Source of the DNA: an uncultured Desulfobacteraceae bacterium
GTDB lineage: Bacteria; Desulfobacterota; DSM-4660; Desulfatiglandales; HGW-15
Direction of reading: 5' to 3'
Assembly: GCA_964526655.1 (NCBI GenBank)
Contig: CAZGIZ010000001.1
Location: 6,220 to 70,219, forward strand
Length of the DNA stretch: 64,000 bases
Shown: piece by piece, positions 11,074-32,140 of the stretch
How the letters are laid out: every line of letters begins with the position of its first letter
How positions within the stretch are numbered: the stretch's first letter is position 1
The notes under the pieces: generated by a model
What the model saw: only the letters and a program-made list of their open reading frames with translations
Database searches by the model: none
What the model was told of the DNA's origin: nothing
Made by a program: the position numbers and the translations under genes

Positions 11074-11159
11074 CCTTCACCCGCCACCACTTCGGAGGAA
11101 TTGCAGATAGCCACATTCGTGTCCGGATCTTTACACTATAAAAGTCAGGAGGAGATAAA

Positions 11160-12473: not shown

Positions 12474-12500
12474 TCTTATTTTGCGGAAGGGAAGCATATC

Positions 12501-14908: not shown

Positions 14909-16010
14909 ACGAAGATAATCGAGTAGCTTGTGATTCGGGGTCAGACCACGGCAAGTAACTCATCAGGCTACGCCTTCGGCTACGACCCGACAGGCCGATG
15001 CCATAAGAGAGAATTCTTGATCAAATTCTCAAAGGAGAGGTATCTGCGATGGCTGTACCGGGGCGGAAAGCGCTTAACCGGTCTACCCTGACGTGAATGA
15101 AGTAGTAGTCATTAGGCTTTTGGGAAGAATGGCAACATTGTCAAAATCCCCACATGTCAAGGGGCGGTCAGGGATGAATCGGAAATAGAGGTTCTGTTAG
15201 GCCCGGGTTTGGACTCGTTAGATTAAGGGAAACCCTGGCCGGGGAGTCTCCTTTACAACGCAGTGAGCAGTACCGCGATTTTTCAGAGGCATTATGAATT
15301 GGTGGCCCAGGACATAGCCCGTTCTTGATGTACGATCCGGTACGCGACATGCAAAAAGCGATTTATGAGGATGTCCGGGCCCAGTTCGGCAGCTTGAGGT
15401 TAGCACTCTTGTGGCTGCATTCGTTCGAGGAGCCCTTTCTTGACGCTGAGGAGATGGATGCTTTGGGAAGGAGGACGGACTTCATAGTAGAAGGCACCCG
15501 GTTCACGGGGGCGCTCTGCTGTCTTGTGTTGAAAAAAATTGAGTAGAATAAATATCTCCAGATCCTGCTCAAGCCGAGAAACCAAGATGTTCGCATCTCA
15601 AATCAAATTATTCGTTATAGAGCATCCATAAATATATCATTGATCATGGAGAACTGGAGATTGTTGAATTTAAAAATCTCCAATTCTCAGCAGTGACATA
15701 TTGATTGACATAATAAATCTATAGGATTTCATGAATTCTCTCTCAGGTAGCCGCCGCATTTTTTTCAAGATGCGATTGATGAATATCTTAGAGAAATAGT
15801 CTATTTTCTTCCCTGACTATTCACCCACAATCAAGGAAAATGAGGATACCCTCCCCCACAGATCGGGGTTTTTTTCTTTGGAATTTTGTGATATGTTCTC
15901 ATAAAAAACTGGCCTGTTTTATAGTGCTTATGTATAAGGATATTCTGTCGTATTTTGAGAGACATCTAAAGGAACAGGGCCTTCGCCATGGGATAACACT
16001 GGTACTACTA

Positions 16011-17963
16011 ATGAATCATTCAGCGCGGATTCATATCTTCGTTCTGCTTATCGTTTTCCTCCAGCTTATCTACCTGCTCATACCCCCCCATTCCTGGAGC
16101 AGGGATGCCCTCAAAGTGGGCGTGCTTCGGTCCAATCCCCCTTTTTCTTTCATTGATAAGAATAACAATATTCTCAGGGGGTTTAGCGTGGACATAGCAA
16201 AACTGGTAGTAGGGACAATGGGATTCAACGCCGAGTTCTACGCCATGAACGGTTCGCGTTTGATGAAGGCCTTGAGCGATGGAAGGATCGATCTTATAAG
16301 CGGTATTATGATTAGCCCTGAAACTGCAAAAGATATCAATCTCATTGAAACGGGGATCCATGTCGAAAGAAAGTTCTTTGTGAGTCACGAATGCCTGACC
16401 ATCACCTGCTATAAAGACCTCCCCGGACATACCCTGGCCTTAGAGCGGGGACGGGATGTTTCGAGATACCTACCTTCCTTAGGAAAGGTAAGTTTTCTGG
16501 AAACGGGCTCCCAGGAAGAAGCGCTCACTTTCCTGAACTCAGGCCAGGCCCAGGTATATATATCGGATTGCAGTGTTTCCTCATTGTATATCATCCAGAA
16601 AAAGGGCCTGCAGAATATCAAAGAAGTAGGAATTCCCATAGAAACGGTTCCATTGGCTCTGGCCGTAAAAAAGGGGAACACGGAACTCCTCACCTCCCTG
16701 AGTGTTGCCTTTGGAAAAATTCTGGAAAACAAGAGTTACGATACCTTGTACAAGAAATGGATAGGCCGGGATATCCGATTCAATAAGTGGAGCGAATATA
16801 TCAGGTTTGTCCTGGCGGCCGTAGGGTTGACTCTCTTTGTTTTGCTTGGATTTATTTTCTGGAATCGCATGCTCAAGAGGAAGGTCCTTCATATAACCAG
16901 TGACCTCCAAAGATCGGAGCAAAAGTACAGGGACCTGATTGAATCATCTCCCGATATGATACATCTGATCTCGCCGGCCGGTGAGGTAAGACATGCAAAC
17001 AAGATTGCCTTATTGCACCTGGGGTATAGCGAAAACGAAATAACCACCCTTAGGATGCATGACCTGGTGTTGTCCCACCAGAAAGAGGATATGACGGAGT
17101 TTATAGATAAGGTCTTTCAAGCGGGATATTCAAATAAGGAATTCACTTTCAAGGCCAAGGAAGGAGATAAGGTCCATGTTGAGATGGTGGCGACCCTCGT
17201 GAAGGGATCTAACCGTTCCGAGGACCTCGCTTGCTGCTTCTCAAGGGATCTGACCGAACGAAAGCGGATAGAGGAGGATCTTATTCATTCGGACCGGCTG
17301 GCGATCATGGGGCAGATGGCGGCAGGAATCGCCCATGAAATCAATAATCCCCTGGGTATTATTTTGACCAACGCGGAAGATTTGCTCCACCATGAGCTCA
17401 AAGAGGAAGACTCCCATGAAAGTCTCAAATCCATAGAGAGAAATGCGCTCAGGGCGGGAAAAATCATCGAGGATCTGCTTACCTTCACACGTCCCACCCC
17501 TCCGGAAGTCACACCCATCGACCTTATACAGCTTATAGACAGCAGCCTGCTTTTCTTGAAACAAAGGCTCAAACAGAAGAGAATAAAGATCGAAAGATTC
17601 TATCCGGATGATATGATCTTGTTCAACGGCGATGAGAATTCGATCCAGCAATTATTGATAAACCTGATTTTAAACGCCATTCAGGCGATCAAAATAGAAG
17701 GCCGGATAACGATCCGTGTCAATACCCATGGAAGGAAAGATAACAGGCATGTGATCCTCAAAGTTGAGGATAACGGGATAGGGATTCCCGAAAAGGATCT
17801 TCCGAAAGTCTTTGATCCTTTTTTCACCTCACGAAAAGAAAAAGGGTTCGGACTGGGTCTATTTACTTCGAGAATTATTGTGGAAAAACATCACGGCTCC
17901 CTCACTGCGCAATCCAGTCCGGGAGAAGGGACTATAATGACTATAGAATTGCCCATAGGATAG
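16011..17963 (+). CDS. sensor histidine kinase with periplasmic SBP-type-3 domain, TM, PAS, HisKA and HATPase domains
   Basis: The ORF is open from 15840. I prefer ATG 16011 (MNHSARIHIFVLL.. signal anchor). Periplasmic LKVGVL..PPFSF..GFSVD.. solute-binding fold, H-box AHEINNPLG, N-box LILNAIQA, G-boxes EDNGIGIP and GFGLGL. Confidence 0.85.
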   Translation: MNHSARIHIFVLLIVFLQLIYLLIPPHSWSRDALKVGVLRSNPPFSFIDKNNNILRGFSVDIAKLVVGTMGFNAEFYAMNGSRLMKALSDGRIDLISGIMISPETAKDINLIETGIHVERKFFVSHECLTITCYKDLPGHTLALERGRDVSRYLPSLGKVSFLETGSQEEALTFLNSGQAQVYISDCSVSSLYIIQKKGLQNIKEVGIPIETVPLALAVKKGNTELLTSLSVAFGKILENKSYDTLYKKWIGRDIRFNKWSEYIRFVLAAVGLTLFVLLGFIFWNRMLKRKVLHITSDLQRSEQKYRDLIESSPDMIHLISPAGEVRHANKIALLHLGYSENEITTLRMHDLVLSHQKEDMTEFIDKVFQAGYSNKEFTFKAKEGDKVHVEMVATLVKGSNRSEDLACCFSRDLTERKRIEEDLIHSDRLAIMGQMAAGIAHEINNPLGIILTNAEDLLHHELKEEDSHESLKSIERNALRAGKIIEDLLTFTRPTPPEVTPIDLIQLIDSSLLFLKQRLKQKRIKIERFYPDDMILFNGDENSIQQLLINLILNAIQAIKIEGRITIRVNTHGRKDNRHVILKVEDNGIGIPEKDLPKVFDPFFTSRKEKGFGLGLFTSRIIVEKHHGSLTAQSSPGEGTIMTIELPIG

Positions 17964-17977
17964 AAGGAGAATGCTCC

Positions 17978-19345
17978 GTGAATGAAAGAATACTTATCGT
18001 CGATGACGAGCTTGAAATGCTGCAAGTTTTGAGCCGTCTTTTCTCGAGAAAAGGATACGAAGTCCATATTGCGGAAACCGGCGAGGAAGGGTGGAAGGCC
18101 ATAGAGGAGACCATGTTCGATCTTGTAATATCCGATATGGCCATGGAAGATTTGGATGGCCTCGAACTCCTGGACCGGGTTCGCTCAACGGATGCGACGA
18201 TCCCATTCATTATCATTACCGGAGTAGGCACCATCGAAAGTGCTGTCCAGGCCATCAAGATGGGTGCATTTCACTACATCACCAAACCTTTTAAGAACAG
18301 GGACATCGAGATCCTCGCCCAAAGGGCCCTGGAATACGGCAAGTTGCACCGAAAGCTCGATAATCTGCGTCTGCATGATGAAGATGGAAGTCTGCCTCAG
18401 ATGCTCATTGGAGCGAGCAAGAGCATGCATGACCTTATGCATTGCGTAGAAAAGGTCTCCGATTCCCTGGCACCCGTCCTGATTCAGGGTGAGACCGGAA
18501 CGGGTAAGTCTCTCCTGGCTGAAAAAATTCACGAGAATAGTTCTCGAAGAGAAAAGCCATTTCTTACGATTGACTGTGGCGCGCTCACCGAAACCCTGCT
18601 CGAGAGCGAGTTGTTCGGTCATGTGAGAGGGGCTTTTACCGGGGCCTTACGCGCCAAAAGAGGTCTTCTTGAAGAGACGCAAGGGGGAACTATCTTTCTT
18701 GATGAGATCTGTGAAATAACCCCTCCGACCCAGGTAAAGCTTCTCAGGGCCATTCAAGAAGGCGAGATAAAGCCTGTGGGCGGCAACAATACAGTCCGGA
18801 TTGATGTTCGATTCATCTCGGCCACAAGCCGTAACCTGGAAATGGAGGTTCAAATAGGTAACTTCCGTGAAGAACTCTACTACCGCCTCGCGGTTGTACC
18901 TCTTCACTTACCCCCACTGCGCGAACGGCGGGAAGACATACCCCTCCTTATCGATTTTTTTTTGAAAAAGTTTTGCAAGAGGTACAAAAAAAGGATTAGC
19001 CTCATCAAACCGGAGGTGTTGGAGATGTTTCTCCAATCTCTCTGGAAAGGCAACATCCGTGAATTGGCAAATATCCTGGAAAGGGGTGTGCTCCTTGCGG
19101 AAAACGAGGTCATTTCGATGGATTGTATCATGAGCACATATCCTCACGAGCGCCTCACCAAGAAACCGGGGCAGGAAAGTCCGGCATTACCCCTGAGACA
19201 GGTGGTTGAAGAAGCAGAGAAGAAGGCAATCATCCAGGCCCTTAAAAATGCCAACAACAACCGAAGTCAGACAGCCCGCCTCCTCGGGATCAGCCGGAGG
19301 GCACTCTACGATAAAATCGCAGCCTACAATCTGATGAAGGTTTGA
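17978..19345 (+). CDS. sigma-54-dependent response regulator (NtrC family: REC + AAA+ + Fis-type HTH)
   Basis: 455-aa. REC domain (ILIVDDE..DLVISDMAMEDLDG), Walker A GETGTGKS, sigma-54 contact motif GAFTGA, C-terminal HTH NRSQTARLLGISRRALYDKI. Confidence 0.9.
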   Translation: MNERILIVDDELEMLQVLSRLFSRKGYEVHIAETGEEGWKAIEETMFDLVISDMAMEDLDGLELLDRVRSTDATIPFIIITGVGTIESAVQAIKMGAFHYITKPFKNRDIEILAQRALEYGKLHRKLDNLRLHDEDGSLPQMLIGASKSMHDLMHCVEKVSDSLAPVLIQGETGTGKSLLAEKIHENSSRREKPFLTIDCGALTETLLESELFGHVRGAFTGALRAKRGLLEETQGGTIFLDEICEITPPTQVKLLRAIQEGEIKPVGGNNTVRIDVRFISATSRNLEMEVQIGNFREELYYRLAVVPLHLPPLRERREDIPLLIDFFLKKFCKRYKKRISLIKPEVLEMFLQSLWKGNIRELANILERGVLLAENEVISMDCIMSTYPHERLTKKPGQESPALPLRQVVEEAEKKAIIQALKNANNNRSQTARLLGISRRALYDKIAAYNLMKV

Positions 19346-19702: not shown

Positions 19703-19718
19703 TGGCACAAAGGTTGCT
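19703..19718 (+). promoter_or_regulatory. sigma-54 (-24/-12) promoter
   Basis: TGGCAC-aaagg-TTGCT matches the consensus TGGCAC-N5-TTGCW exactly (GG 19704-05, GC 19716-17). It lies about 90 nt upstream of ATG 19809 and about 360 nt downstream of the activator gene. Confidence 0.7.
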
Positions 19719-19808: not shown

Positions 19809-20303
19809 ATGAGAATGAAAAAAACGACAGTGGTCTTCGCAATCCTGGCGATGATAATGGGCTTTGCATTCGCCCGGGCGGCGACGGGAGCGGATCTCAT
19901 CATCGTGGCCAGTAAGGCAACCCAGGAAGCTTCACAAAACTGGGTTGGATTTTTAAAGACAAGTGAGGTTCCCTTTAAGCTTGTTACGCCGCAGGAATTT
20001 GCAAATTATAAACAGCAGAAATACCTTTTTTTCCTGGGCGGCGTAGATGAAACGGAGGGCATCGCTGGTCCTGTGAAAGAGGCCCTCACCAAGGACGAGT
20101 TTCAGTGGGTCAGCCAGCCGGGCAATGGTAAATTGTATGTTAAATCCGATATATGGGCACCCGGGCAACGTATCGTTATTGTTGCAGGATCAGATTTAAA
20201 AGCTTCGGAAGAGGCCAGGAAAACCACGAGGGAGCAGTGGTTTGCAATACTCACCGATTGGTTTGACCTCGAACAAGGGCCTGGTGGACTCCATACCTAT
20301 TAG
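19809..20303 (+). CDS. exported hypothetical protein (orphan)
   Basis: 164-aa. GGAGG lies 9 nt upstream of the start. Signal peptide MRMKKTTVVFAILAMIMGFAFARA. No family recognised. Confidence 0.6.
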   Translation: MRMKKTTVVFAILAMIMGFAFARAATGADLIIVASKATQEASQNWVGFLKTSEVPFKLVTPQEFANYKQQKYLFFLGGVDETEGIAGPVKEALTKDEFQWVSQPGNGKLYVKSDIWAPGQRIVIVAGSDLKASEEARKTTREQWFAILTDWFDLEQGPGGLHTY

Positions 20304-20400: not shown

Positions 20401-21807
20401 TTGATTATGAAAAAGTTAATCTTTCAAATGATATTGTATGCATCCTTGTTTATTCCTGGAGGGCTCTTTGCCTTTCCGACGGTTTTTCCGCACGGCACCA
20501 CGATCTATAAGCCTGAAAAGTGTTACAGCGGTTTTACCATCCTGACGACCGAGGGCTATCAGACTATCCTCATCGACATGAACGGCAATGTGGTCCACCA
20601 TTGGGCAAATTTGTGCGATGAGGAACACCCCGCCAAACTCCTTCCGGGCGGATATGCCATGGGCGCCACGGGGGGGAGGGGGCGGTTATTCGGCAATGAG
20701 GACTCCAATGATCTTTCAGTGGTGGATTGGAATGGAAATATCGTCTGGACCTATAAAAAGGCCGGTGTTCATCATGACTTCGAGAGGGAGGGCAACCCTG
20801 TGGGATACTATGTCCCCGGTATGGATTCATACGTTGACAAGGGTAAGACCCTGATCCTTTCTCACAAAATCGTAAAAAATAAAAAAATCAGTGATAAACC
20901 CCTTTATGACGATTTCATTTTTGAGGTGGACTACAGCGGGAAGATCCTTTTTGAATGGCTGGCCAGCGAATACATTGATGAAATGGGATTTGATCGACTA
21001 GCCAGGATCGTCATGTACCGGTATCCAAACTATACCATGACACGGACACCCGGCGTTGTTGGGGGAGACTGGATCCATGTAAACACGGCTTCCTGGCTTG
21101 GCCCTAATAAATGGTATGATCAGGGGGACGATCGTTTCCATCCCGACAACATCATCTATGACGGCCGTCAAACCAATACCACCGGCATTATCGACAGGAA
21201 GACCGGTAAGCTCGTCTGGCACATGGGTCCTGATTTTCTTCAGAGCCGTGAATTGATGAAGCTGGGTGTCACCGTCGGCCTCCACCATGCGCATATGATT
21301 CCCAAGGGTCTGCCCGGAGATGGAAATATCATCCTTTTCGACAATGGGGGTTATGCGGGATTCGGTGAACCCAATCAGGCCTCCCCTTACGGCATGAATA
21401 ACGTCAGGAGGGACTATTCGAGGGTGATAGAATTCAACCCCGTAACCCTTGAGATGGTATGGGAGTACGACGCCCATAAAGCCGGGTATAGGGACATGTA
21501 CAAGTTCTATAGCGACTACGTCAGCTCTGCCCAGCGCCTGCCGAACGGAAATACCCTGATTGTAGAAGGCGCCTTGGGACGGATTTTTGAGGTAACTCCC
21601 CAATACGAGACGGTCTGGGAGTACGTCAGCCCCTATTACAACGAGAAGGAACACTTTAACCTGGTCTATCGTGCCTACAGGGTGCCCTATGATTATGTTC
21701 CCCAGTTGCAGAAGCCTGTGGAAAAGGCTGTGATTCCGCCTGAAAATTCTACCCTGAGACTGAAAGATCTGACCACGGCACCACCTGCTACACCTTTAGG
21801 GAAGTGA
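20401..21807 (+). CDS. arylsulfotransferase (ASST)-like exported beta-propeller protein
   Basis: 468-aa. AAGGAGG RBS and signal peptide. The N-terminal pattern Y.PEK.Y.G.T.L......T.LIDM.GNVVH.W and C-terminal RLPNGNTLI....GRIFEVT....VWEY are as I recall for ASST-family (PF05935/PF14269-type) proteins. Confidence 0.6.
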   Translation: MIMKKLIFQMILYASLFIPGGLFAFPTVFPHGTTIYKPEKCYSGFTILTTEGYQTILIDMNGNVVHHWANLCDEEHPAKLLPGGYAMGATGGRGRLFGNEDSNDLSVVDWNGNIVWTYKKAGVHHDFEREGNPVGYYVPGMDSYVDKGKTLILSHKIVKNKKISDKPLYDDFIFEVDYSGKILFEWLASEYIDEMGFDRLARIVMYRYPNYTMTRTPGVVGGDWIHVNTASWLGPNKWYDQGDDRFHPDNIIYDGRQTNTTGIIDRKTGKLVWHMGPDFLQSRELMKLGVTVGLHHAHMIPKGLPGDGNIILFDNGGYAGFGEPNQASPYGMNNVRRDYSRVIEFNPVTLEMVWEYDAHKAGYRDMYKFYSDYVSSAQRLPNGNTLIVEGALGRIFEVTPQYETVWEYVSPYYNEKEHFNLVYRAYRVPYDYVPQLQKPVEKAVIPPENSTLRLKDLTTAPPATPLGK

Positions 21808-21913: not shown

Positions 21914-22309
21914 ATGGGGGTAAAAGAAATGGCATACAGAAAGTTTTTTTATGTATTTTTAACTGTAATCATTTTCGGCCTGGTTTTGGCTTTCGCCGGG
22001 ACTGCCGGTGCGCAGCATGAAGGCGGGCTTGGCGTCAAAAAAATTCCCTTGAATATCGCAACTGTCGATCAGCTGATGAAGATTGACGGCATGACAGAAG
22101 AACTTGCAAAGGCGATCGTGGAATACCGGGAAAAATCGGGCTTTTTTAAAAAGCCTGAAGACCTTCTCAAAGTCCCGGGCGTGACAAAGGAAATTTATGA
22201 AAAACTCAAACCTCAGCAAGGTGTCGAAGGGGATATCTTTTGTGTCCCCAAGGAAGGCACGGAAGACGAGGAAGAGGAAGAACCTTTGTTGAGTCCTTCC
22301 AAGTGTTAG
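21914..22309 (+). CDS. exported ComEA-type helix-hairpin-helix protein with acidic tail and C-terminal Cys
   Basis: 131-aa (alternative start ATG 21929 gives MAYRKFFYVFL.. signal peptide). LNIATVDQLMKIDGMTEELAKAIVEYREKSGFFKKPEDLLKVPGVTKEIYEKLKP matches the ComEA C-terminal HhH domain. Ends ..EDEEEEEPLLSPSKC. Confidence 0.65.
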   Translation: MGVKEMAYRKFFYVFLTVIIFGLVLAFAGTAGAQHEGGLGVKKIPLNIATVDQLMKIDGMTEELAKAIVEYREKSGFFKKPEDLLKVPGVTKEIYEKLKPQQGVEGDIFCVPKEGTEDEEEEEPLLSPSKC

Positions 22310-22344: not shown

Positions 22345-22456
22345 CCCTCTTAAATTTCGACTGTTTCCCCTTCCCCGGATTCCTTGGGAGGCGCAGTGTG
22401 TCACCGCGGGCAGAACAGGCGACCTCGGGATGACAAACCCCTTTAAGGAGCCAAGA

Positions 22457-25324
22457 ATGTCGGAAAAAATTCATGGAAATAACGAGACGAACCTATTTCT
22501 CATTATCGGTCTCGTGATAGTGTTCGTTTTGTACGGCCCCTCTTTTTCATCCGGAGAAGAAAATCCAAGAGGCTTGGATCCATCACGGGAAGCCACCTAT
22601 ATCCCGGAATTAGGCGGGATCTTGAACAAGACCTATCACAATCAATATGGACAACAAAGAGACCTTGCCGAATGTCTCGTACTACGAGGGAGCAAAATAA
22701 AGGATGGGAAAGCTTACGTAGATGCCGGCGGGCTCTATTATGCCTCCGATACTTCCTATGATGCAAGGCCCTTTATGCGTGATCCCTTTCTCATTCTGGG
22801 AGAGCATGCTTATCTCCTCCGCCTCACGCCTGAGAAGGTTGTAAAAAAAAATATCCGGATCAAAAAAGGCGAAAAGGCCCTGGTGGATCCTTCCGGATAC
22901 CGGATCTGGTACGATTTCGCAACGGATCATTATGAAAAACCCTATGGTGAATTCGCTTTCATAGCGCCCTCAGGCGGATGGCCCATGGAATGGTCCGTGT
23001 CCACTTCCTTCCCTTCACCAACAGAGGTAAGGAATCTGAATCTCAAGGGAGGGATCCACCCACAGCTAAAACCCTACTTCAACAGCAATGCCCATATTTA
23101 CGGCGCCACGAAGATCATCGCAGAAAAAGTGACTTCGGAGGAGGCGGTATTTTCAACCGTGGAGTACCCGGCCATCAAAGAGGCCGTCTTTTCCATGGAC
23201 AGGCCCTGGGTGGTGGACATCCTCCAGGAGAGTTTCCGCTGGTATGGAAACAAGAGGATCTATGCCTTCAGAAAAGAAAAAGGCATCCTAGTGGAAGTCC
23301 GCGACTGGAAGGGAAAAAAGGTGCTGGCCTCCAAACTCATGAAACCCCCTACACAGCAGGAATACAAAGTGGCCCACCAGGATGAGATGTGTCTGACGCG
23401 GCTCGACCTGGATCTGCACATCGAATTGATCGTGGACCCCTCCTGGTACAAGGGTTCCGACTATGCACCCTGGGTCAATGAAGTCCCCTATGGGTGGAAG
23501 GAAGGGACCGTTGCCTTCGCCATCTATGATGACCTTATAAAGGTGGAAGACGGGAAACCCTGGCCGCATGACAATAGGTACATTGTACGCCTGGAACCGA
23601 ACCTGGAGACCGGAATGCTCAAGAGATTGGTCCTGGAAAACCGGGACCCTTTTATCCTGAGCAATGAAAACCAGAGCTATGACGGTCCCATAAAGATTTC
23701 CGAAGTCTGGGACCGAAAATACTTCACCGTGGTCGCGAAGGATTTCGAGAAAGATGTCGCGCACACCTCCTACGTACGGGACTCTTTTTTCCGGCGAACC
23801 GATAACCTCGTCCTCTGGAAATCGGGCCGGGAAAACATCGATTTTTTTATCGGGATGAGCCCTCTGGTCGTTTCGGTGATGGAAGACACTTTTCTCATGC
23901 GTCTGGCCGATCCATCCTATGGCGTTCCGGTGGTAAAGTCCAGATTCACCTCCTACCCGAGGGTCGTCCCCAACGCCAAATGGTTCGCCCCGGACCAGAC
24001 CGCCGCCTTTGTCCCCAAAATGAAAGGTTTCGTACGTAAGTATGTAAGAAACAGGAAAGATCACCGGCTTGTTGCCTCGGAAACCCTTGTGATCAGACAA
24101 AGCTATGTGGACTACAGAAAAGGAAAGATCATCATTCCTCCTGGAGGGCTTTACTACAGTACCCGAAACAGCAGGAACATCCGTCCGGGCGAACCCCTTG
24201 TCGTCCTCGGGAAAGACGCCTACCTGTTGAGGTTCAAGAGTTATCTGGTGGTTAAGAGAAACTTCCGGCTCGATCTCTGGAAGGAATATCCCATGGGGGA
24301 CGGGAATCCCCTTTTCTGGCAGGACGAACCCCTCGGCGATGGGAGTAAGGCCATTCGATACATGGGATCCTCGATTCTTTGGGGAAGGCCTGTTGGCCTG
24401 GTTCGAATAACCAAATACTCCGGGAATAACTGGGGCGCAAACCTTCTGGTTGCGGACGGATTTCACGGATACGGCGATATGGCCGAGGTGGACGCTCAGA
24501 AGGCCGGTGTTTCCCCTCAGGACTTTAACCTGTTCATACCAAATGAATTCGGCGATGGAGCGACCTATCTGATTCCGAAATTTATAGCACCTGATTTTGT
24601 TGAGGTTGAAGAAATGGGCACACCCGGTATGGATTCCTTTACGATTACCTATGAAGAGCCAAAAAGGGTCGTCCTTGAACCGGGGCAGGAGACCCCTGTG
24701 GGGAAATACCGGCTGCAGGTTAAGGAAGTAAACAAAGAGACCAAGAGGGTGACCCTCGTCCTCTTGAACGCCTCGGGCGAGACCGTGGCCGAAAAGGCCC
24801 TCGGACCGATTGACGAAGACCTCTATGGGACAATGCCCCAGTATGCCCCTTCCCAGGAAAAGGTCATCATGACCTACGAAGATATTCAGGTGGATCTGGA
24901 ACTTCCCTTTGATTTTGAGAAAAAGAAGGTCGCCCTCTGGATGGCGACGGGTGCAAGGACATTCGATCGGGATACCCCCTGGCCCGATGACACACGCTTT
25001 TTGATCAGGCCGGATGTCTGCGGCCACTGCTACCAGCTCAATGAGATTATCCTCGACAACAAGGATCCCATCATTCTGGACGGGAGGAACAACACCTTCA
25101 CGGGGCTGGACGGGTATTTCAAGATTGTCATAGATGATTTTGACGGGGAAGCGATCAATGCCTGGCATATCGAAGATCAATACGGGAAGACAACGCCGAA
25201 CCTGGCGGAATATCCAAGGGATAATCTCGACGTGATGGTCGGTGTCAACGGGACCACGGAGAGCTTCTTGCGAAAAACACTGCTTGAAAGACTTGCTTAC
25301 AGGGAAATTTGGAGACTGAAATAA
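22457..25324 (+). CDS. large membrane-anchored/exported protein with internal tandem duplication (orphan)
   Basis: The ORF is open from 22430. ATG 22457 follows AAGGAG by 6 nt. N-terminal hydrophobic anchor LFLIIGLVIVFVLYG. The two halves share GGLYY..(R)P....LG..AYLLR and PWP.D.R...R...L.N.DP.IL motifs at a constant offset of about 472 residues. Confidence 0.8.
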   Translation: MSEKIHGNNETNLFLIIGLVIVFVLYGPSFSSGEENPRGLDPSREATYIPELGGILNKTYHNQYGQQRDLAECLVLRGSKIKDGKAYVDAGGLYYASDTSYDARPFMRDPFLILGEHAYLLRLTPEKVVKKNIRIKKGEKALVDPSGYRIWYDFATDHYEKPYGEFAFIAPSGGWPMEWSVSTSFPSPTEVRNLNLKGGIHPQLKPYFNSNAHIYGATKIIAEKVTSEEAVFSTVEYPAIKEAVFSMDRPWVVDILQESFRWYGNKRIYAFRKEKGILVEVRDWKGKKVLASKLMKPPTQQEYKVAHQDEMCLTRLDLDLHIELIVDPSWYKGSDYAPWVNEVPYGWKEGTVAFAIYDDLIKVEDGKPWPHDNRYIVRLEPNLETGMLKRLVLENRDPFILSNENQSYDGPIKISEVWDRKYFTVVAKDFEKDVAHTSYVRDSFFRRTDNLVLWKSGRENIDFFIGMSPLVVSVMEDTFLMRLADPSYGVPVVKSRFTSYPRVVPNAKWFAPDQTAAFVPKMKGFVRKYVRNRKDHRLVASETLVIRQSYVDYRKGKIIIPPGGLYYSTRNSRNIRPGEPLVVLGKDAYLLRFKSYLVVKRNFRLDLWKEYPMGDGNPLFWQDEPLGDGSKAIRYMGSSILWGRPVGLVRITKYSGNNWGANLLVADGFHGYGDMAEVDAQKAGVSPQDFNLFIPNEFGDGATYLIPKFIAPDFVEVEEMGTPGMDSFTITYEEPKRVVLEPGQETPVGKYRLQVKEVNKETKRVTLVLLNASGETVAEKALGPIDEDLYGTMPQYAPSQEKVIMTYEDIQVDLELPFDFEKKKVALWMATGARTFDRDTPWPDDTRFLIRPDVCGHCYQLNEIILDNKDPIILDGRNNTFTGLDGYFKIVIDDFDGEAINAWHIEDQYGKTTPNLAEYPRDNLDVMVGVNGTTESFLRKTLLERLAYREIWRLK

Positions 25325-25364
25325 AGCAGTATCGTTCACTTGAGAAAAAAGAGGGAGAGAGTAA

Positions 25365-26525
25365 ATGACTACCGATGCAATTGCAGTGTCAAAGGGACTA
25401 AGCTTTAAAAAATCTTCCATGTGGAGTACCCTGCCCGGTTTTCATGAAAGCTACCCCGGGCTTTTGGCCCTCATTATCATAGCCGTTTTCTGCGGACTTC
25501 CAGGACTTTCATGGCCCATAACCATCCAGCATTTTTTGGAATATATTGATGAAGTTCTTCCTCCCATTTATGGAAAAGGGCTTTTTACCGACCTGCTGCA
25601 TTTTAATTATGTGGTGATCAGCCTGGCTGCGGGAATTCTGATCAGAAACGTCGCCGGTGTGCCGAAAAGTTGGGAAAAGGGCCTAAGCTACTATTCAGTC
25701 TTTCTGCATGCAGCCATTATTATGCTGGGTTCCCAGTACCTATTGAGAGACATGGTTAAGCTGGGCAGTCTCACTGTCATCATCATGGTCGTCTTTGTCT
25801 TCGGATCCTGTTCCCTCTTAATATGGCTGGGAAGACTTTTCAGACTGGAAGATTCTCTCTGTGGGATCCTGGCGGCAGGTTTCGGGATGTGCGGCGTAAC
25901 AGCTGCTGTAGCCACCGCCCCCATGGTGCGTGCCAGAAGCGAACAGATCACCTATGCCATCGCCGCTTCCGTCTCATTTGGTATCTTCTGTCTGGTCGGC
26001 CTGCCAGCCCTCGGACGGCTTTTGGAGATCACACAGAACTCCTTCGGCGTGGTCAGTGCAACAGGGGTTCCCAATTCCGCACAGGTCATTGCCACGGGGT
26101 TTATGTACGGGTTTGAAGCGGGGAAGGTCGCGGGCTTCGTGAACATCGGGCGGATAGTCCTCATACCGGCGGGGGCATTGTTCATCTATTTCTTTACGAT
26201 GACGCGTGATGTCCTGGCCTCGGAAAAGATCAGCATATTGCAAACGGTGAAGGAAAAATTCCCCATTTATGTTTTAGGGTTCATCATTGTTTGGGGAGCG
26301 AACTGCCTTCACCTTTTCCCGAAACCGGCGGTATTCGCCATGGAAAAAGTGATGATCTGGTTTTTCAGCCTCTCCTTTGTGGGCCTTGGGCTCCAGACCA
26401 AACTATCGGATGTCAGGAAGGCCGGAATTAAGGGCGCCATTGTAGGCTATATGGCAGGCGCCATCAAACTGATATTTGCTCTCATCGTCATCGTTTTCCT
26501 GATGAGACAGGGTTTCTTGAGATGA
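25365..26525 (+). CDS. YeiH/UPF0324 (putative sulfate exporter, PSE) family membrane protein
   Basis: 386-aa polytopic protein. LAAGFGMCGVTAAVATAPMVRA and GLGLQTKLSDVRKAGIKG align with E. coli YeiH IGAGSSICGAAAVLATEPVVKA and ALGLTTHVSALKKAGAKP. Confidence 0.7.
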   Translation: MTTDAIAVSKGLSFKKSSMWSTLPGFHESYPGLLALIIIAVFCGLPGLSWPITIQHFLEYIDEVLPPIYGKGLFTDLLHFNYVVISLAAGILIRNVAGVPKSWEKGLSYYSVFLHAAIIMLGSQYLLRDMVKLGSLTVIIMVVFVFGSCSLLIWLGRLFRLEDSLCGILAAGFGMCGVTAAVATAPMVRARSEQITYAIAASVSFGIFCLVGLPALGRLLEITQNSFGVVSATGVPNSAQVIATGFMYGFEAGKVAGFVNIGRIVLIPAGALFIYFFTMTRDVLASEKISILQTVKEKFPIYVLGFIIVWGANCLHLFPKPAVFAMEKVMIWFFSLSFVGLGLQTKLSDVRKAGIKGAIVGYMAGAIKLIFALIVIVFLMRQGFLR

Positions 26526-26539
26526 GGAAGGAATAAAAT

Positions 26540-26704
26540 ATGGCGCAAGATTCAAAAGATAAACTTGAAGAAGAGAGAGGAAAAATAAAGGCGCAAACAG
26601 AAGCTCAAATGATGCGATCGCGAGTCAATGACTACGTGGCCATCATTTTGGCCCTCGGCACGGTCTTTCTCCTCTGGATTCTACAGTTGATGGGGTTTTA
26701 TTGA
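26540..26704 (+). CDS. 54-aa micro-protein with C-terminal TM helix (not in the ORF track)
   Basis: My own translation: MAQDSKDKLEEERGKIKAQTEAQMMRSRVNDYVAIILALGTVFLLWILQLMGFY. GAGGAAGGA RBS lies about 7 nt upstream. The stop TGA 26702-04 lies inside the ORF-track TTG-26701 frame and 2 nt upstream of the preferred ATG 26707. Confidence 0.35.
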   Translation: MAQDSKDKLEEERGKIKAQTEAQMMRSRVNDYVAIILALGTVFLLWILQLMGFY

Positions 26705-26706
26705 TT

Positions 26707-27228
26707 ATGGCCGAAAAAGTCCTTCTGCTTTTGGGCATCGCAGACGCGGAAGAAGCCGGCATATACATCAAAAAGGAATCCCATCGCCGTGACGTTAGGG
26801 TAAAGGGCGAGGGCAGACAGCATGAGGAAAATGCGGTCGAGGAGGCCTTCAACTATGCTCGATCGAAGTCAAAATCCGTTGTCGCCGTTCAGGTCCTTTA
26901 CTCCGACCTGTACCATTATGGACATACTGACCTCCTTCTCCCGGGACCCGGGAAAAAACGTTTCCTACTCTACGTCAGGGATGAGGTGCTGAAACAGGCC
27001 ATGGGAAGGGAAAAGGCCCTCCGGGAAAGGGCGCGGAGGCAAGGCATAGCCCTTGAGGTAAGATCGGTTGAATCGCAGGATCCCGCTTCAACCGCCGTTG
27101 AAGAGGCGAAAAAGGGCTACGATGCGATCTTTTTGCCGAAGGAGAGGAAAAGACGATTCCCCCTCTTGAAAAGGAACGTTGAGCAACAATTGCGGAAGCA
27201 GGTACTGACCCCCATCATAAGCTGCTGA
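26707..27228 (+). CDS. universal-stress-protein-like (USP fold) protein lacking the ATP motif
   Basis: About 173 aa (the track starts at TTG 26701). The layout VLLLLG...VVAVQVLY...EVRSVESQDPASTAVEEAKKGYDAIFLP resembles UspA-fold proteins. No G-x2-G-x9-G(S/T) motif is present. Confidence 0.45.
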   Translation: MAEKVLLLLGIADAEEAGIYIKKESHRRDVRVKGEGRQHEENAVEEAFNYARSKSKSVVAVQVLYSDLYHYGHTDLLLPGPGKKRFLLYVRDEVLKQAMGREKALRERARRQGIALEVRSVESQDPASTAVEEAKKGYDAIFLPKERKRRFPLLKRNVEQQLRKQVLTPIISC

Positions 27229-27330
27229 TGAAAAGAAGGGTAGTCCCTTTTGCCCAGGGCGGGTCACCGCACCCGCTCAATCGGGTTGATGCGTTTCTCG
27301 ACCCTGCGGTGCTCGTTGATTGGAAGAAAA

Positions 27331-29493
27331 ATGCCGAAAATCAGTCGTCGTGATTTTATGAAGATGGGTGCCCTGGCCGTGGGCGGAGGGCTGCTATCAC
27401 CCGCTTTGGGCAAGGAAAAACTGATATTCGGCGCCCCCCTGCCCTCGAAATATGTGGATCGGGAAGTGGACAGTTGCTGTCAATTCTGTCAAGTGCGCTG
27501 TACGACGAAGGTCCAGATCAAAAGTGACCGGGTTGTGAACGTCTACGGAAATCCGGAAAATTTCTGGACCGGGGGCGCCATGTGTGCCAAGGGAAAGTCC
27601 ATGGTGGAATTGACCTATAGCCCCTATCGCATTCTGCATCCCCTCCTGCGTGAAGGCGGTGGCTGGAAGCGAATATCCTATCCGCAAGCCCTTAATATGG
27701 TGGCCGAGCGAATCCTCAAGGTTAAAAAAGATTTCCCCGATGACTATGCCCACAGGGTCGCGTTATTTGAACCCCTGTGGGAGTCCAGGGAAAGTGAACT
27801 GGCAGCAGAGGCGGCTTTTCGGCTGGCAGGGTTTCCCGATCTTTGTTCCCCGGGTGACGGCTGCATCGGAAATTCCGCCACTGCGCTTAGTATTTGCCTG
27901 GGCAGCCCGATCTCCCCGACCACTTTAGATGAAGTTCTTAATGCCGAAAAGGTTGTCCTGTTCGGGGCGAACATCGCCGAAATGTATCCGGTCTATGTTC
28001 GCTGGCTCCATCAGGCACGTGAAAAGGGGGTGGAATTGATCTATCTCGATCCTCGCATTACCCCGACGGCCAACTTTTGTAACAAACAGTATCAACCAAG
28101 ACCCGGAACCGATGGCGCCCTGGTTCTTGGAATCATTCGGTTCCTAATAAAGGAAGACCTCTATAACCACGACTATGTCACCTTACACGTAAACGGCTTT
28201 GATGATCTGGCAAAGGCGGCCGACCCCTACACCCCTGAAAGGACGGCCGAAATCACGGGCCTGCCCGTGAAGGAGGTGGTGTTATTGGCCGGGGACCTTG
28301 GCAGGAGCACAAAGACCCTCCTCTGGATGGGAGGCTCTATCTCCCGTTATACCAATGCTATTCAGACGGTTCGCGCCATGATTGCATTGCAGGCAATCAC
28401 GGGAAACCTTTCCGGCCCGGGCAAAGGGATCATGAACGTCCAGGGGGGCAAGCCCGGGGGGGGTGAAAAATTCGAAGAGACCTACCGGTATCCCAAGCTT
28501 TCCTATAGCCTGAATTTCAGAAAGGTGCTCTACAACATGAAACGCGGCATGCTCGACGTGCTTCTTCTGAACTCCAGTTACCGTCGCTACCCGGATGCAA
28601 ACAGGGTCAAAGAGGCTATTTCAAACGTCGGTTTCGTTGTATACCGCGGGTTTTTCATGGACGAGGAGGCGAAACTGGCCCACCTGATCATTCCAGGGAC
28701 CATGGTCTTCGAGAGTGAAGGATCTCAATACGGGGCTCAGCGCCAAGTAGTATGGCGCAACAGGGCCATTCCGAGACCCGGGGAGACGGTTGAAGACTGG
28801 CGCTTCTATTCCGACCTGGGCAAAAAGATATGCGGCGGGGCGTACCCCCCCGTGAACAGCGCCGAAGAAATCTATGAACTGTTCAGAAAATATGCACATA
28901 CCTGGAATGGACTCACCCTGGAACGCTTGAAAAAGACCCCGACAGGGCTCACCTGGCCCTGGCCGTCGACGGATAGACCGGAAGCGAGAGGGACCCTTTA
29001 CCCCGGTGACCGCTTCCTGACCCAGGATGGGAAGGTCGAGCTTCGCTCGCCGGTCCTTGGGCTTATCCGGTGGACTCAGCCGAAGGGGAGCCCCGAAGGT
29101 AACGGCAAAGGAAAGGAGGGATTTCCCCTGATATTTACGCAGGGTAAAGTGGCTTGGCACTGGCAGCATACCTACACCAACTGGTCCTCTTTTATGGGGC
29201 AGTTCTCCAAAGGAAATTATGTCCAGGTCCATCCGGAAACCATTCAGGATCTTCAGATCAAGGACGGCGACTGGGTCTACCTGGAGACGCAGGTAAACAA
29301 AATCAAGGCCAGGGTACAAATATCGGAAGCCATTTTACCCGGTGTCATCTGGACGCCATCGCATCCCGAACCCGATAGCCCCATTCAGGGGAATGCTGGT
29401 CAGTCCATCAACACCATCATCCCCAATTATTGGGATAAGGTCTCGGCCCAGTTCAACGGGTTTGGATGCAGGCTGACCAAAGCGAATATATAA
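27331..29493 (+). CDS. Tat-exported molybdopterin (bis-MGD) oxidoreductase catalytic subunit, Psr/Phs/Arr-like
   Basis: The ORF is open from TTG 27250. ATG 27331 gives MPKISRRDFMKMGALAVGGGLL, a twin-arginine signal. N-terminal FeS motif CCQFCQVRC...CAKG. MopB-family collinearity (GANIAE..P, LIYLDPR.T.TA, PRPGTDGAL). Confidence 0.85.
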   Translation: MPKISRRDFMKMGALAVGGGLLSPALGKEKLIFGAPLPSKYVDREVDSCCQFCQVRCTTKVQIKSDRVVNVYGNPENFWTGGAMCAKGKSMVELTYSPYRILHPLLREGGGWKRISYPQALNMVAERILKVKKDFPDDYAHRVALFEPLWESRESELAAEAAFRLAGFPDLCSPGDGCIGNSATALSICLGSPISPTTLDEVLNAEKVVLFGANIAEMYPVYVRWLHQAREKGVELIYLDPRITPTANFCNKQYQPRPGTDGALVLGIIRFLIKEDLYNHDYVTLHVNGFDDLAKAADPYTPERTAEITGLPVKEVVLLAGDLGRSTKTLLWMGGSISRYTNAIQTVRAMIALQAITGNLSGPGKGIMNVQGGKPGGGEKFEETYRYPKLSYSLNFRKVLYNMKRGMLDVLLLNSSYRRYPDANRVKEAISNVGFVVYRGFFMDEEAKLAHLIIPGTMVFESEGSQYGAQRQVVWRNRAIPRPGETVEDWRFYSDLGKKICGGAYPPVNSAEEIYELFRKYAHTWNGLTLERLKKTPTGLTWPWPSTDRPEARGTLYPGDRFLTQDGKVELRSPVLGLIRWTQPKGSPEGNGKGKEGFPLIFTQGKVAWHWQHTYTNWSSFMGQFSKGNYVQVHPETIQDLQIKDGDWVYLETQVNKIKARVQISEAILPGVIWTPSHPEPDSPIQGNAGQSINTIIPNYWDKVSAQFNGFGCRLTKANI

Positions 29494-29567
29494 CTCGTAT
29501 GCCATTAAAAAAGACATGATTGTCGTTTCAGAAATCATAGGCGTTCAATGAAGGAGGTTTATCTATA

Positions 29568-29912
29568 ATGAAAAAACAATATACTTTGACGATCTTGAGT
29601 TTCAGAACATTAACCTGTTTCTTCCTTTTTATTTTTTCCCTGCTCGCCCTCGGGCCAGCCGGCCTTGCGCAGGAGCAAAAACTCAAAGGCAAGACGGTCA
29701 ATATTAACACGGCCACGCTGGAGCAACTGGAGAAGGTCCCCCTCATGACCAAGGAACTGGCTGAGGGCATCATCAACTATCGCGAAGAAAATGGTGATTT
29801 TCAAGTTTTGGAAGAGCTGCTTCAGGTCCCGGGATTTACACGTGAATTGCTCAGAAAGATGAAGCCCTTCCTGCTGCTGGAAGGCTTGGGCGGCGAGGAA
29901 TGTACCTGCTGA
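29568..29912 (+). CDS. exported ComEA-type helix-hairpin-helix protein ending in Cys-Thr-Cys
   Basis: 114-aa. AAGGAGG RBS and signal peptide ..LLALGPAGLAQE. VNINTATLEQLEKVPLMTKELAEGIINYREENGDFQVLEELLQVPGFTRELLRKMKP matches the HhH domain. Ends GGEECTC. Confidence 0.65.
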   Translation: MKKQYTLTILSFRTLTCFFLFIFSLLALGPAGLAQEQKLKGKTVNINTATLEQLEKVPLMTKELAEGIINYREENGDFQVLEELLQVPGFTRELLRKMKPFLLLEGLGGEECTC

Positions 29913-29954
29913 TACCTTTTACCTGGAATAATCAGGAAGTAAGGGAATCGGGAT

Positions 29955-30587
29955 ATGCGACCGAAATATGGGATGGTAATCGATGCCTCAATCTGCATTA
30001 ACTGTAGGGCATGTATCGTTGCCTGCCAGTTAGAGAATGGAGTTCCACCAGATTTCACACGGGCCTGGATTAAAGAGACTTCTTTAAATAATGGGACGAA
30101 AGTGAATTTTCAACCGGGTAATTGCATGCAGTGCGACATGCCGACCTGTGTGGATGCCTGCCCGGTCAATGCCACCTATAAGGGTAAAGACGGGAGAGTA
30201 ATCATCGATCCTTTACTCTGCATCGGTTGTGGGCTCTGTATTCCCGCTTGCCCCTATGGCGCACGGTTTCTCCACCCATATAGGGATATCGCAGATAAAT
30301 GCGACTTTTGTGGCCACCGATTGAAACGAGGTTTGGAGCCGGCCTGCGTGGTGACCTGCCCTACTGGTGTGCGCCTATTCGGAGATTTCAACGATCCTTC
30401 GAGCAAAGTCAGCCGGCTTGTGAAGCAAGGAGGCCTCGTTCGAGTGGTCAATACCAAAGTCGATACGAAACCAAACATCTACTATTTCAAAAACACGGCC
30501 CCGCTTGACTGGCCGGAGGATCCGGAACTTCCAGATCCGGACGAACTGGAGGAGATCCGTAAGATGAATATTGATGAAAGAGGATGA
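29955..30587 (+). CDS. 4Fe-4S dicluster-domain electron-transfer subunit (PsrB/DmsB/NrfC type, four clusters)
   Basis: 210-aa. Cys groups CINCRACIVAC, CMQCDMPTCVDACP, CIGCGLCIPACP and CDFCGHR..(N)..CVVTCP. No signal peptide, which fits Tat hitch-hiking with the catalytic subunit. Confidence 0.85.
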   Translation: MRPKYGMVIDASICINCRACIVACQLENGVPPDFTRAWIKETSLNNGTKVNFQPGNCMQCDMPTCVDACPVNATYKGKDGRVIIDPLLCIGCGLCIPACPYGARFLHPYRDIADKCDFCGHRLKRGLEPACVVTCPTGVRLFGDFNDPSSKVSRLVKQGGLVRVVNTKVDTKPNIYYFKNTAPLDWPEDPELPDPDELEEIRKMNIDERG

Positions 30588-30775: not shown

Positions 30776-32140
30776 ATGAAAAAAACATTGAGTCTGCTAT
30801 TCGTTGTTTTCTTTGTGACGGTATGCTTTGGCTCCGCGCTTGCCTATGAAGCCATAGTCGGTCCAACAGGGGTCCTCAAATACGACAGGGAGAAATCCTA
30901 TGGCGGTTATACCCTGTTTGCTCCCATGATCGGTTGTAAAACAACATACCTCATCGACATGGAGGGAGACCTGATCCACAAATGGGAATCAGAATATCCC
31001 CCGGGATTCTATGCTATGCTGCTACCCAATGGCAATCTGCTCCGAGGTGGCAACATGGCGCAAAAGGGAGACAATAAATGTAACATCGGTGGCGCGGCCG
31101 GCACCGTGCAGGAGATCGATTGGGACGGCAATGTGGTTTGGGAGTATAAAATGAACACCCCAACGGAGGTCCAGCACCATTGCTTCGATAGAATGCCCAA
31201 TGGCAATACCCTGATACTTGGCTGGGAGAAAAAGACACGGGATGAATGGATTGCCAAGGGACGCAACCCAGAATCTATCCCCACATCATGTTTCTACCAT
31301 GGATTTCGCTTCATGGACCTTTGGGTGGATTTTGTCCGCGAGGTCGATAAAAATGGTATGACGGTCTGGGAGTGGCATGTATGGGATCATATCGGGCCGG
31401 GCCCCCATCAATTCAACGTCAATTACCAACTCCCTAAGGGTGTCGGAGATTATGAGTGGAATTACGATTGGACCCACTTCAATACATGCGAGTACATTCC
31501 GGAGAATGACTGGCTCCTCCTGAACTCACGTAATTTCAGTGAGTTTTATATTATCGATCACAAGACCGGCCAAATGCTCTATCGATGGGGCAATCCCAGC
31601 ACCTATGGTCAGGGAAGGAGGCCCTCCTGGTTAGATAATGGCGACCAGAAGGTCTTCGGGAACCATAATGCCACATGGTTGGGGAAAAATCGCGTACAGT
31701 TGTTCGATAACGGCTCCGAACGCGCGGAGGGCAACCGCTCGGCGGTAATGGAAATCGACATTACAACAAATAAAATCGTCTGGGAGTACGAGACCAAGAC
31801 ATCCAACAGCTTTTTTTCCTACCGCCAGGGGGCCGCGCAAAGACTGCCTAATGGAAATGTACACGTAACATCCACCCATGGCGGACATCTGTTCGAGGTG
31901 ACCCAGAAAGGGGAGGTAGTGTGGGATTTCGTAAGTCCAGTACGCCTGGGCAAAATGCATTGCTTCTTTGAAGATGGCGACTCGCCCAACGGCATGTTCA
32001 ATATGATCCATAGATCCTATCGCTATGGCGCAGATTATTCAGGCCTGAAGGGCAAGGATTTGAGCAAGAAGGGGCCATTAACCGAGTGTCCCAAGTTTTT
32101 TGAAACCTATAAAACAGATGTAATAGAGAAAAAGAAATAA
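30776..32140 (+). CDS. arylsulfotransferase (ASST)-like exported beta-propeller protein, divergent paralog
   Basis: 454-aa. AAGGAGG RBS, signal peptide ending SALA-YE. Shares YGGYTLFAP....TYLIDMEGDLIHKW and RLPNGN......GHLFEVT..GEVVWDF with the 20401 gene but is otherwise divergent. Confidence 0.6.
   Translation: MKKTLSLLFVVFFVTVCFGSALAYEAIVGPTGVLKYDREKSYGGYTLFAPMIGCKTTYLIDMEGDLIHKWESEYPPGFYAMLLPNGNLLRGGNMAQKGDNKCNIGGAAGTVQEIDWDGNVVWEYKMNTPTEVQHHCFDRMPNGNTLILGWEKKTRDEWIAKGRNPESIPTSCFYHGFRFMDLWVDFVREVDKNGMTVWEWHVWDHIGPGPHQFNVNYQLPKGVGDYEWNYDWTHFNTCEYIPENDWLLLNSRNFSEFYIIDHKTGQMLYRWGNPSTYGQGRRPSWLDNGDQKVFGNHNATWLGKNRVQLFDNGSERAEGNRSAVMEIDITTNKIVWEYETKTSNSFFSYRQGAAQRLPNGNVHVTSTHGGHLFEVTQKGEVVWDFVSPVRLGKMHCFFEDGDSPNGMFNMIHRSYRYGADYSGLKGKDLSKKGPLTECPKFFETYKTDVIEKKK

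Follow-up and report, generated by a model that had tools for sequence, protein, structure and literature searches.

A secreted two-unit CGHC protein that looks like the fused cysteine form of an unrecognised selenoprotein family

A 64-kb stretch of DNA from an uncultured Desulfobacteraceae bacterium (hereafter the window) encodes a secreted protein of two homologous units, of which only the second carries a CGHC motif. The single-unit relatives of this protein (the target) look, from their sequences, like an unrecognised family of UxxC selenoproteins, of which the target would be a fused cysteine form. Because the CGHC site is kept only in the C-terminal unit and its first residue appears to be selenocysteine in single-unit relatives, we propose that the target is a periplasmic thiol-based redox or sulfur-relay protein, which would exchange with the C-terminal cysteine tails of neighbouring secreted proteins and make or handle sulfite or sulfane sulfur; we give this reading about an even chance. 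We found no description of the family or of its gene cluster in the literature on arylsulfate sulfotransferases (ASST) in sulfate reducers, on sigma-54, or in selenoprotein lists. The two-unit family is unnamed. What appears to be new is the scaffold and its fusion into a pseudo-dimer, together with the tail proteins and the selenoprotein relatives; a reactive-cysteine relay that serves sulfur enzymes of the periplasm, which is the function we propose, is of a known kind.

An in-frame UGA at the CGHC position of single-unit relatives

An exhaustive profile search returned single-unit relatives of about 440-560 residues together with many of about 380 residues, which all stop at '...RF(I/L)ARP(D/E)T', just short of where CGHC stands in the target. 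In the DNA of these shorter relatives an in-frame TGA is followed by xxC and then by about 100 further codons homologous to the target, as in the read-through example RPDT-U-STC-SLPIELMLENIDPIVLDG...GYF.IV.D.FDG...AW. Across 79 metagenome loci, mostly from the human gut, the codon aligned with C864 of the target belongs to TGA-xx-Cys in 68 and to TGC-xx-Cys in 4 (residues are numbered here on the 964-residue open reading frame from 22430, so that the 955-residue protein starts at residue 10). The hosts of single-unit forms are mostly human-gut Desulfovibrionaceae but also Bacillota, with the in-frame TGA arrangement seen in Paradesulfitobacterium aromaticivorans and Neomoorella glycerini, and UxxC occurs as well in loci L079-L082, L162 and L163. 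Gene callers split the selenocysteine forms into products of about 380 and about 100 residues, to which NCBI gives the label 'hypothetical protein'.

The selenocysteine forms also carry a stable hairpin 3' of the UGA, for which RNAalifold gave no aligned consensus. Per-sequence hairpin energies, with the cysteine forms as controls, were used in place of RNAalifold. Hairpins in the selenocysteine forms averaged -17.3 kcal/mol, with 94% at <= -10 and the apical loop about 34 nt after the UGA, as compared to an average of -9.2 kcal/mol and 42% at <= -10 for the same place in cysteine forms of equal GC content.

Neither the read-through selenocysteine forms nor the cysteine forms were matched by any model of NCBIfam (release 20.0) or Pfam, and the table of known selenoprotein families in a 2026 review, most of which have models, holds nothing comparable (PMC13188914). 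Since an in-frame UGA is followed by homologous codons, no model matches, and that table offers no counterpart, we read the single-unit proteins as what looks like a selenoprotein family that has gone unrecognised. In these relatives the UGA aligns with cysteine and the coding downstream is conserved; the target itself has TGC. Like the prokaryotic UxxC/CxxC selenoproteins (thioredoxin-, DsbA- and DsrE-like; PMC13188914), the family swaps selenocysteine and cysteine at the first UxxC position, has selenocysteine forms that are truncated at the UGA in databases, resides in selenocysteine-rich anaerobes (Desulfobacterota, Clostridia), and has a single-unit gene adjoining another selenoprotein gene. 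It differs from them in having a large unit of beta-sandwich type rather than a thioredoxin fold, in lacking a Pfam or NCBIfam model, and in that the window's protein is a fused two-unit cysteine form with one dead site.

All 74 two-unit genes that include this region keep CGHC unchanged, which, along with the alignment of C864 to the UGA, bears out the importance that had been attached to it. Alternation of cysteine and selenocysteine at one site is a hallmark of a redox-active or nucleophilic residue, and residues 864-867 supply the CxxC motif that oxidoreductases of the PDI/DsbA/DsbL type require.

The UGA-bearing single-unit loci lie within L079-L163, for example L111 (9950-11425), L162 (9001-10608) and L163 (9001-10446). 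In L111, the commonest gut locus, the single-unit selenocysteine gene is directly followed by a gene of the UGSC (seleno)protein family (NF041046, 169 bits; 11557-12279).

Two homologous units, one CGHC site

The original prediction described two homologous halves at a constant offset of 472-473 residues, and this description held throughout. BLASTP of residues 1-495 against residues 496-964 gave a single collinear alignment of 473 columns with 23% identity (E = 3e-32), in which GGLYY at G100 pairs with GGLYY at G573 and PWP at 377-379 with PWP at 850-852. Each half was also matched separately by single-unit relatives, the C half (E ~1e-30 to 1e-57) more strongly than the N half (E ~1e-16 to 1e-24). 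CGHC had been placed in the second half, and it is found there only. As cysteine is missing from the corresponding place in the N unit, the fusion can be viewed as a pseudo-dimer with one live site. Coordinates are collected in Table 1.

The open reading frame spans 22430..25324 on the forward strand (964 residues). The start previously chosen, at 22457, is preferred because AAGGAG, a Shine-Dalgarno sequence, lies 7 nt upstream of that ATG. Export was likewise predicted, and the N-termini of 39 family members agree with it: a short hydrophobic run after K/R is followed by small residues (SSA, ASA, SSG) and then by a conserved EENPRGL. The membrane anchor proposed for the same region fared less well, in that the hydrophobic stretch is present but is probably a cleavable Sec-pathway signal peptide, with cleavage before EENPRGL. 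Since the N-termini fit this pattern, the mature form is probably a soluble periplasmic protein without an anchor. The residues matching S447 (23768-23770) and A525 (24002-24004) of the target are cysteines in most relatives, and 27 of the 39 members have both; the target has neither. This pair may form a disulfide between the two units of those relatives.

Table 1. Positions of the target gene and associated features in the window
Feature	Position	Strand	Basis
Sensor kinase (periplasmic SBP_bac_3 + PAS) and sigma-54-dependent response regulator	15840..19345	+	library matches; co-located in most related loci
Sigma-54 promoter consensus TGGCACAAAGGTTGCT	19703..19718	+	only zero-mismatch match in the 64-kb window
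Small secreted protein, family with C-terminal Tyr	19809..20303	+	22/24 homologues end in Y
ASST-like beta-propeller, paralogue 1	20401..21807	+	PF05935 at 80 bits, PF14269
Secreted HhH_3 protein, acidic tail to PSKC-COOH	21914..22309	+	library match, tail survey
Target gene, secreted protein of two homologous units	22457..25324	+	955 aa; AlphaFold2 model, family search
Probable cleavable Sec signal peptide, residues 10-42	22457..22555	+	inferred from N-termini of 39 members
N-terminal unit, degenerate copy without CxxC (NLET at the homologous place)	22556..23914	+	half-versus-half and single-unit comparison
C-terminal unit, copy nearest the single-unit (seleno)protein relatives	23915..25321	+	comparison; separate AlphaFold2 model, pLDDT 72.9
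CGHC motif, C864-C867	25019..25030	+	TGC GGC CAC TGC; C864 aligns with UGA of single-unit relatives
YeiH-family (PF03601) membrane transporter, next gene after target	25365..26525	+	library matches, synteny
Conserved 175-aa protein, weak Usp similarity	26701..27228	+	library match, synteny
Tat-exported molybdopterin oxidoreductase, Fdh/Nap/Psr/Phs branch	27250..29493	+	library matches
Second secreted HhH_3 protein, ends GGEECTC-COOH (CxC tail)	29568..29912	+	tail survey
Four-cluster ferredoxin subunit (TtrB/DsrO-like)	29955..30587	+	library matches
ASST-like beta-propeller, paralogue 2	30776..32140	+	library match, family alignment

A widespread family with a distant likeness to an S-layer domain

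A search of 5.8 billion proteins returned 245 relatives, and a scan with one genome per species placed the gene in 77 loci and genomes; with more than 245 homologues in all, at 42-81% identity, the target is not the orphan it had been called. The best 120 of the 245 relatives are all about 950 residues long and 57-77% identical to the target, and they are 'hypothetical' wherever the source gives a name. Two-unit genes occur in Desulfatiglandales, Syntrophales, Desulfosarcina variabilis and strain NaphS2, in Pseudodesulfovibrio, Desulfovibrio, Desulfomicrobium and gut Mailhella, and also in Acidobacteriota, Methylomirabilota and Tectomicrobia. Their loci fall into two tiers of identity, 57-81% and 42-49%, and mean column identity across 39 members drawn from several phyla is 66%. 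No single-unit paralogue was found in the two-unit loci or in the window. No Pfam or NCBIfam model matches the target at E <= 0.01, nor does any solved structure match it by sequence; neither the protein itself nor profiles of the family or of mixed units brought up a usable match in Pfam, NCBIfam or the PDB.

AlphaFold2, run on the family alignment, gave an all-beta model of the target (predicted local distance difference test, pLDDT, 79.5; predicted template modelling score, pTM, 0.76), in which CGHC sits between two strands and the C-terminus is a helix (residues 941-963), without a linker or transmembrane segment. The target had no match to thioredoxin-family Pfam models, and the model lacks a thioredoxin fold. 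For the full model and the separate C-half model alike, the top Foldseek match in the PDB was 3u2g, the DUF1608 domain of the Methanosarcina acetivorans S-layer protein MA0829 (E = 5.6e-6 and 2e-5, probability 1.00), yet the template modelling score was only 0.33-0.36 and identity 11-13%. This weak match was the only consistent one. Membership in DUF1608 by hidden Markov model (PF07752, TIGR01567) was considered and rejected: one of 17 relatives (P0153) scored 18.1 bits against a cut-off of 30, and neither half of the target was matched by either model at E <= 10.

The target might also be viewed as a structural envelope or scaffold protein akin to the archaeal S-layer, which would organise periplasmic enzymes with no chemistry of its own and with CGHC as a structural disulfide. 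Besides the 3u2g matches, such a role would draw on the sub-threshold PF07752 score just mentioned, on faint precomputed PF05123 matches of two relatives, and on a likeness to MA0829 that extends to an exported, tandemly duplicated protein of all-beta units and to the Ala/Pro-rich linkers and C-terminal transmembrane anchors of some single-unit relatives, which give these a surface-protein-like appearance. In a further single-unit group C-P-x-G-H stands in place of CxxC, and linkers and anchors of this kind are frequent; the gene surroundings of this group were uninformative. However, the target's unit spans about 460 residues as compared to about 260 in MA0829, the target has neither tether nor anchor, and its gene, with a cysteine/selenocysteine motif, belongs to a metabolic operon. 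A structural disulfide would not be expected to alternate with selenocysteine, as the site does in 68 of 72 relatives; conservation is far above the level usual for S-layers, and the family models went unmatched. We therefore regard a structural role as unlikely. The S-layer resemblance suspected in the original prediction was right in its direction, given the Foldseek match and a match between the segment singled out there and a repeat of an archaeal PGF-CTERM protein, but its support from sequence is thin; and a mean column identity of 66% across phyla, like a CxxC that exchanges cysteine for selenocysteine, is hard to square with the plain surface or scaffold role that it had suggested.

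Gene neighbourhood and regulation

To survey the neighbourhood, the proteins encoded beside the target in the window were compared to all loci by tblastn. A PF03601/YeiH gene lies directly 3' of the target gene in every two-unit locus with downstream DNA, nearly all two-unit loci also encode ASST-like paralogues along with a pair of histidine kinase and sigma-54 response regulator, and a molybdopterin oxidoreductase dependent on twin-arginine translocation (Tat) occurs with a four-cluster ferredoxin in many. The association with ASST-like and helix-hairpin-helix (HhH) neighbours, put forward from the window, is indeed conserved in the 77 genomes. The sigma-54 consensus TGGCACAAAGGTTGCT lies 3' of the response regulator gene and about 90 nt upstream of the operon's first gene, and it is from this promoter that the neighbouring two-component system appears to activate the operon.

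The strict adjacency of target and transporter gene could mean that the target is an extracytoplasmic partner that captures a substrate for the YeiH-family transporter, with CGHC serving only to tune or gate the handover. PF03601 also adjoins the selenocysteine form in L162. We consider this distinctly improbable, given that the PF03601 gene is missing near most single-unit relatives and that a selenocysteine/cysteine site indicates chemistry and not binding alone.

The molybdoenzyme gene, with its iron-sulfur (FeS) subunit and either NrfD or cytochrome b, adjoins one-unit and two-unit forms in both Desulfobacterota and Bacillota. For example, some two-unit loci have the order Mo enzyme, FeS subunit, NrfD, HhH, target, YeiH, single-unit selenocysteine genes follow Mo enzyme, FeS subunit, cytochrome b (PF01292) and a small protein, and the Paradesulfitobacterium locus (L162) has the selenocysteine form beside DsrC, DsrE, PF03601 and a PsrABC-like set. 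This adjacency would also suit a protein that uses CxxC/UxxC as ligands to bind or handle metals or metalloids (Se, Hg, As, Cu, Mo/W), in the service of the molybdoenzyme or of detoxification. Several predicted selenoprotein families use CxxC or UxxC to bind soft metals (table, PMC13188914), and the C-P-x-G-H variant, with its cysteine and histidine, could be a metal site. We judge this quite unlikely: metal transporter or resistance genes are not conserved in the loci, and the conserved partners that can be named, YeiH, DsrC, DsrE and the ASST-like proteins, indicate sulfur.

By its layout the enzyme resembles PsrABC/PhsABC, with a Tat-exported subunit of the molybdenum-bis(pyranopterin guanine dinucleotide) (Mo-bisPGD) type, a four-cluster ferredoxin, plus NrfD in L003 and L162 or cytochrome b in L111 and L163. 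It differs in that the window's copy has no membrane anchor gene and the catalytic subunit could not be assigned to any characterised enzyme, all of its NCBIfam scores being far below cut-off. To our knowledge, no known Psr or Phs operon has a protein like the target. In the window the Mo and FeS genes (27250-30587) are split by an HhH gene and lack an anchor gene, which elsewhere is NrfD (L003 8538-9431; L162) or cytochrome b561 (L111 8777-9517; L163). This anchor-less pair resembles, as a likeness of layout, the MOLY cluster of sulfur disproportionators (PMC12998232).

ASST-like propellers and proteins with conserved tails

The two ASST-like neighbours score 80 and 82 bits against PF05935 (cut-off 24), and their one match by sequence in the PDB is weak (E = 0.0017). 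Both families have invariant His/Arg clusters, and neither has a cysteine conserved at >= 95%. The target could in principle be a dedicated disulfide oxidoreductase that folds these enzymes, as DsbL/DsbI does for E. coli AssT, since CGHC is identical to the motif of protein disulfide isomerase and E. coli assT is encoded together with its own Dsb pair. Such a maturation role is disfavoured because the ASST-like families lack a conserved cysteine; moreover, the model has no thioredoxin fold and single-unit forms occur without ASST-like genes, and we consider it very improbable. In Mailhella and gut Desulfovibrionaceae loci (L055, L053, L077) the target-YeiH-HhH trio is preceded by a row of as many as five ASST-like paralogues, which suggests diversified donor or acceptor specificity in gut strains.

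Three small secreted proteins of the operon have conserved C-termini. The first, of 164 residues, is encoded before the first ASST-like gene and ends in ...GGLHTY; its terminal tyrosine, kept in 22 of 24 family members as compared to a background frequency of 1.6%, places a phenol beside a phenol-sulfotransferase-like enzyme, which is suggestive. The others are HhH_3 (ComEA-like) proteins, of which the one encoded just before the target ends in ...EEEEEPLLSPSKC-COOH. Of 79 two-unit loci, 51 encode its SKC tail and 66 the CxC tail of the other, (D/E)C[T/N/S]C-COOH; among 83 one-unit loci, many of them short contigs, none encodes the SKC tail and 36 encode the CxC tail. The CxC tail is also kept in versions that lack HhH, such as a Neomoorella lipoprotein (L163 8357-8857), where a long Ser/Thr/Pro linker leads to EEEDCGC.

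The tail proteins may resemble SoxYZ, DsrC and Sud, carriers or relay proteins for sulfur enzymes, of which Sud serves polysulfide reductase. Just as SoxYZ has a C-terminal GGCGG arm and DsrC has C-terminal cysteines, the tail proteins have an invariant C-terminal cysteine, and their genes adjoin those of a molybdoenzyme and a reactive-cysteine protein, with DsrC and DsrE in one related locus. There is, however, no homology: the tail proteins, as putative carriers, are HhH_3 (ComEA-like) proteins or low-complexity lipoproteins.

A candidate relay for periplasmic sulfur compounds

In the mechanism that we propose, the target would be a Sec-exported pseudo-dimer of two all-beta units of about 460 residues, only the C-terminal one of which keeps a reactive CGHC. 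It probably acts on the cysteine-bearing tails (CxC-COOH, SKC-COOH) of the adjacent small secreted proteins and would work with the ASST-like propellers, the Psr/Phs-like molybdoenzyme or both. The YeiH-family transporter would either receive the sulfur product, most plausibly sulfite, or supply it, and the two-component system would turn the operon on through the sigma-54 promoter. The duplication, the family, the pairing of selenocysteine with cysteine, the synteny and the invariant tails are observed here, and redox activity, partners, substrate and direction of transport we infer from these features. The choice of sulfite follows the family member of E. coli and Salmonella, in which YeiH is the main determinant of sulfite-stress resistance, as seen in Salmonella (PMC12880088).

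Several observations weigh against a thiol relay of this kind. The fold is not that of thioredoxin, and its nearest match is a structural S-layer domain. The second cysteine is not universal in the wider family, because the second single-unit group carries C-P-x-G-H. Many loci of the more distant clade have no Mo enzyme within 10 kb, and most single-unit loci lack ASST-like and YeiH genes; with these genes missing from so many loci, the set of partners is not fixed. Sulfite as the transported species derives from one distant member of the transporter family. Finally, RNAalifold gave no aligned consensus selenocysteine insertion sequence (SECIS) in the selenocysteine forms, and their hairpin loops are A-rich.

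A bolder version, to which we assign a low probability, is an ATP-independent periplasmic sulfo-relay from sulfate esters through Tyr/Cys tails to sulfite for respiration, bypassing the ATP-dependent activation of sulfate. In this scheme the ASST-like enzymes would move a sulfuryl group from aryl or organic sulfates to the C-terminal Tyr or Cys of the carriers, and CGHC (UxxC in relatives) would reductively free sulfite from S-sulfocysteine, as thioredoxin does for 3'-phosphoadenosine 5'-phosphosulfate (PAPS) reductase. The YeiH-family carrier would then import sulfite for DsrAB, the Mo/FeS module would re-reduce the disulfide, and sulfate reducers would avoid the ATP cost of sulfate activation.

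If the thiol-relay reading is true, a selenoprotein family frequent in the Desulfovibrionaceae of the human gut, with further members in Moorella- and Desulfitobacterium-type Bacillota, has been missed, being systematically truncated and labelled hypothetical in databases. It would offer a new scaffold for reactive-cysteine chemistry, with CxxC/UxxC on an S-layer-like beta scaffold instead of a thioredoxin fold, and the window's protein would be such a scaffold fused into a pseudo-dimer with one dead site. The ASST-like propellers, the Tyr/Cys-tailed carriers, the Psr/Phs-like molybdoenzyme, the sulfite-linked transporter and sigma-54 control would then form a testable cluster, and a candidate for an undescribed route by which sulfate reducers of sediments and gut use periplasmic sulfur compounds.

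Further features of the target gene and its homologues

C82 in the N unit (22673..22675, forward strand) was considered as a universal third reactive cysteine and rejected; it is invariant in the window's clade, is Ala in the more distant clade, and is Ala in 34 of 73 loci overall. An antisense open reading frame of 710 residues (23288-25420, reverse strand) covers most of the target gene and is most likely a by-product of coding-strand composition. In L061 tblastn recovers the homologue (10001-12881) in two pieces that overlap, one at 10001-11191 and the other at 11178-12881, which suggests a frameshift or an assembly error in a metagenome-assembled genome.

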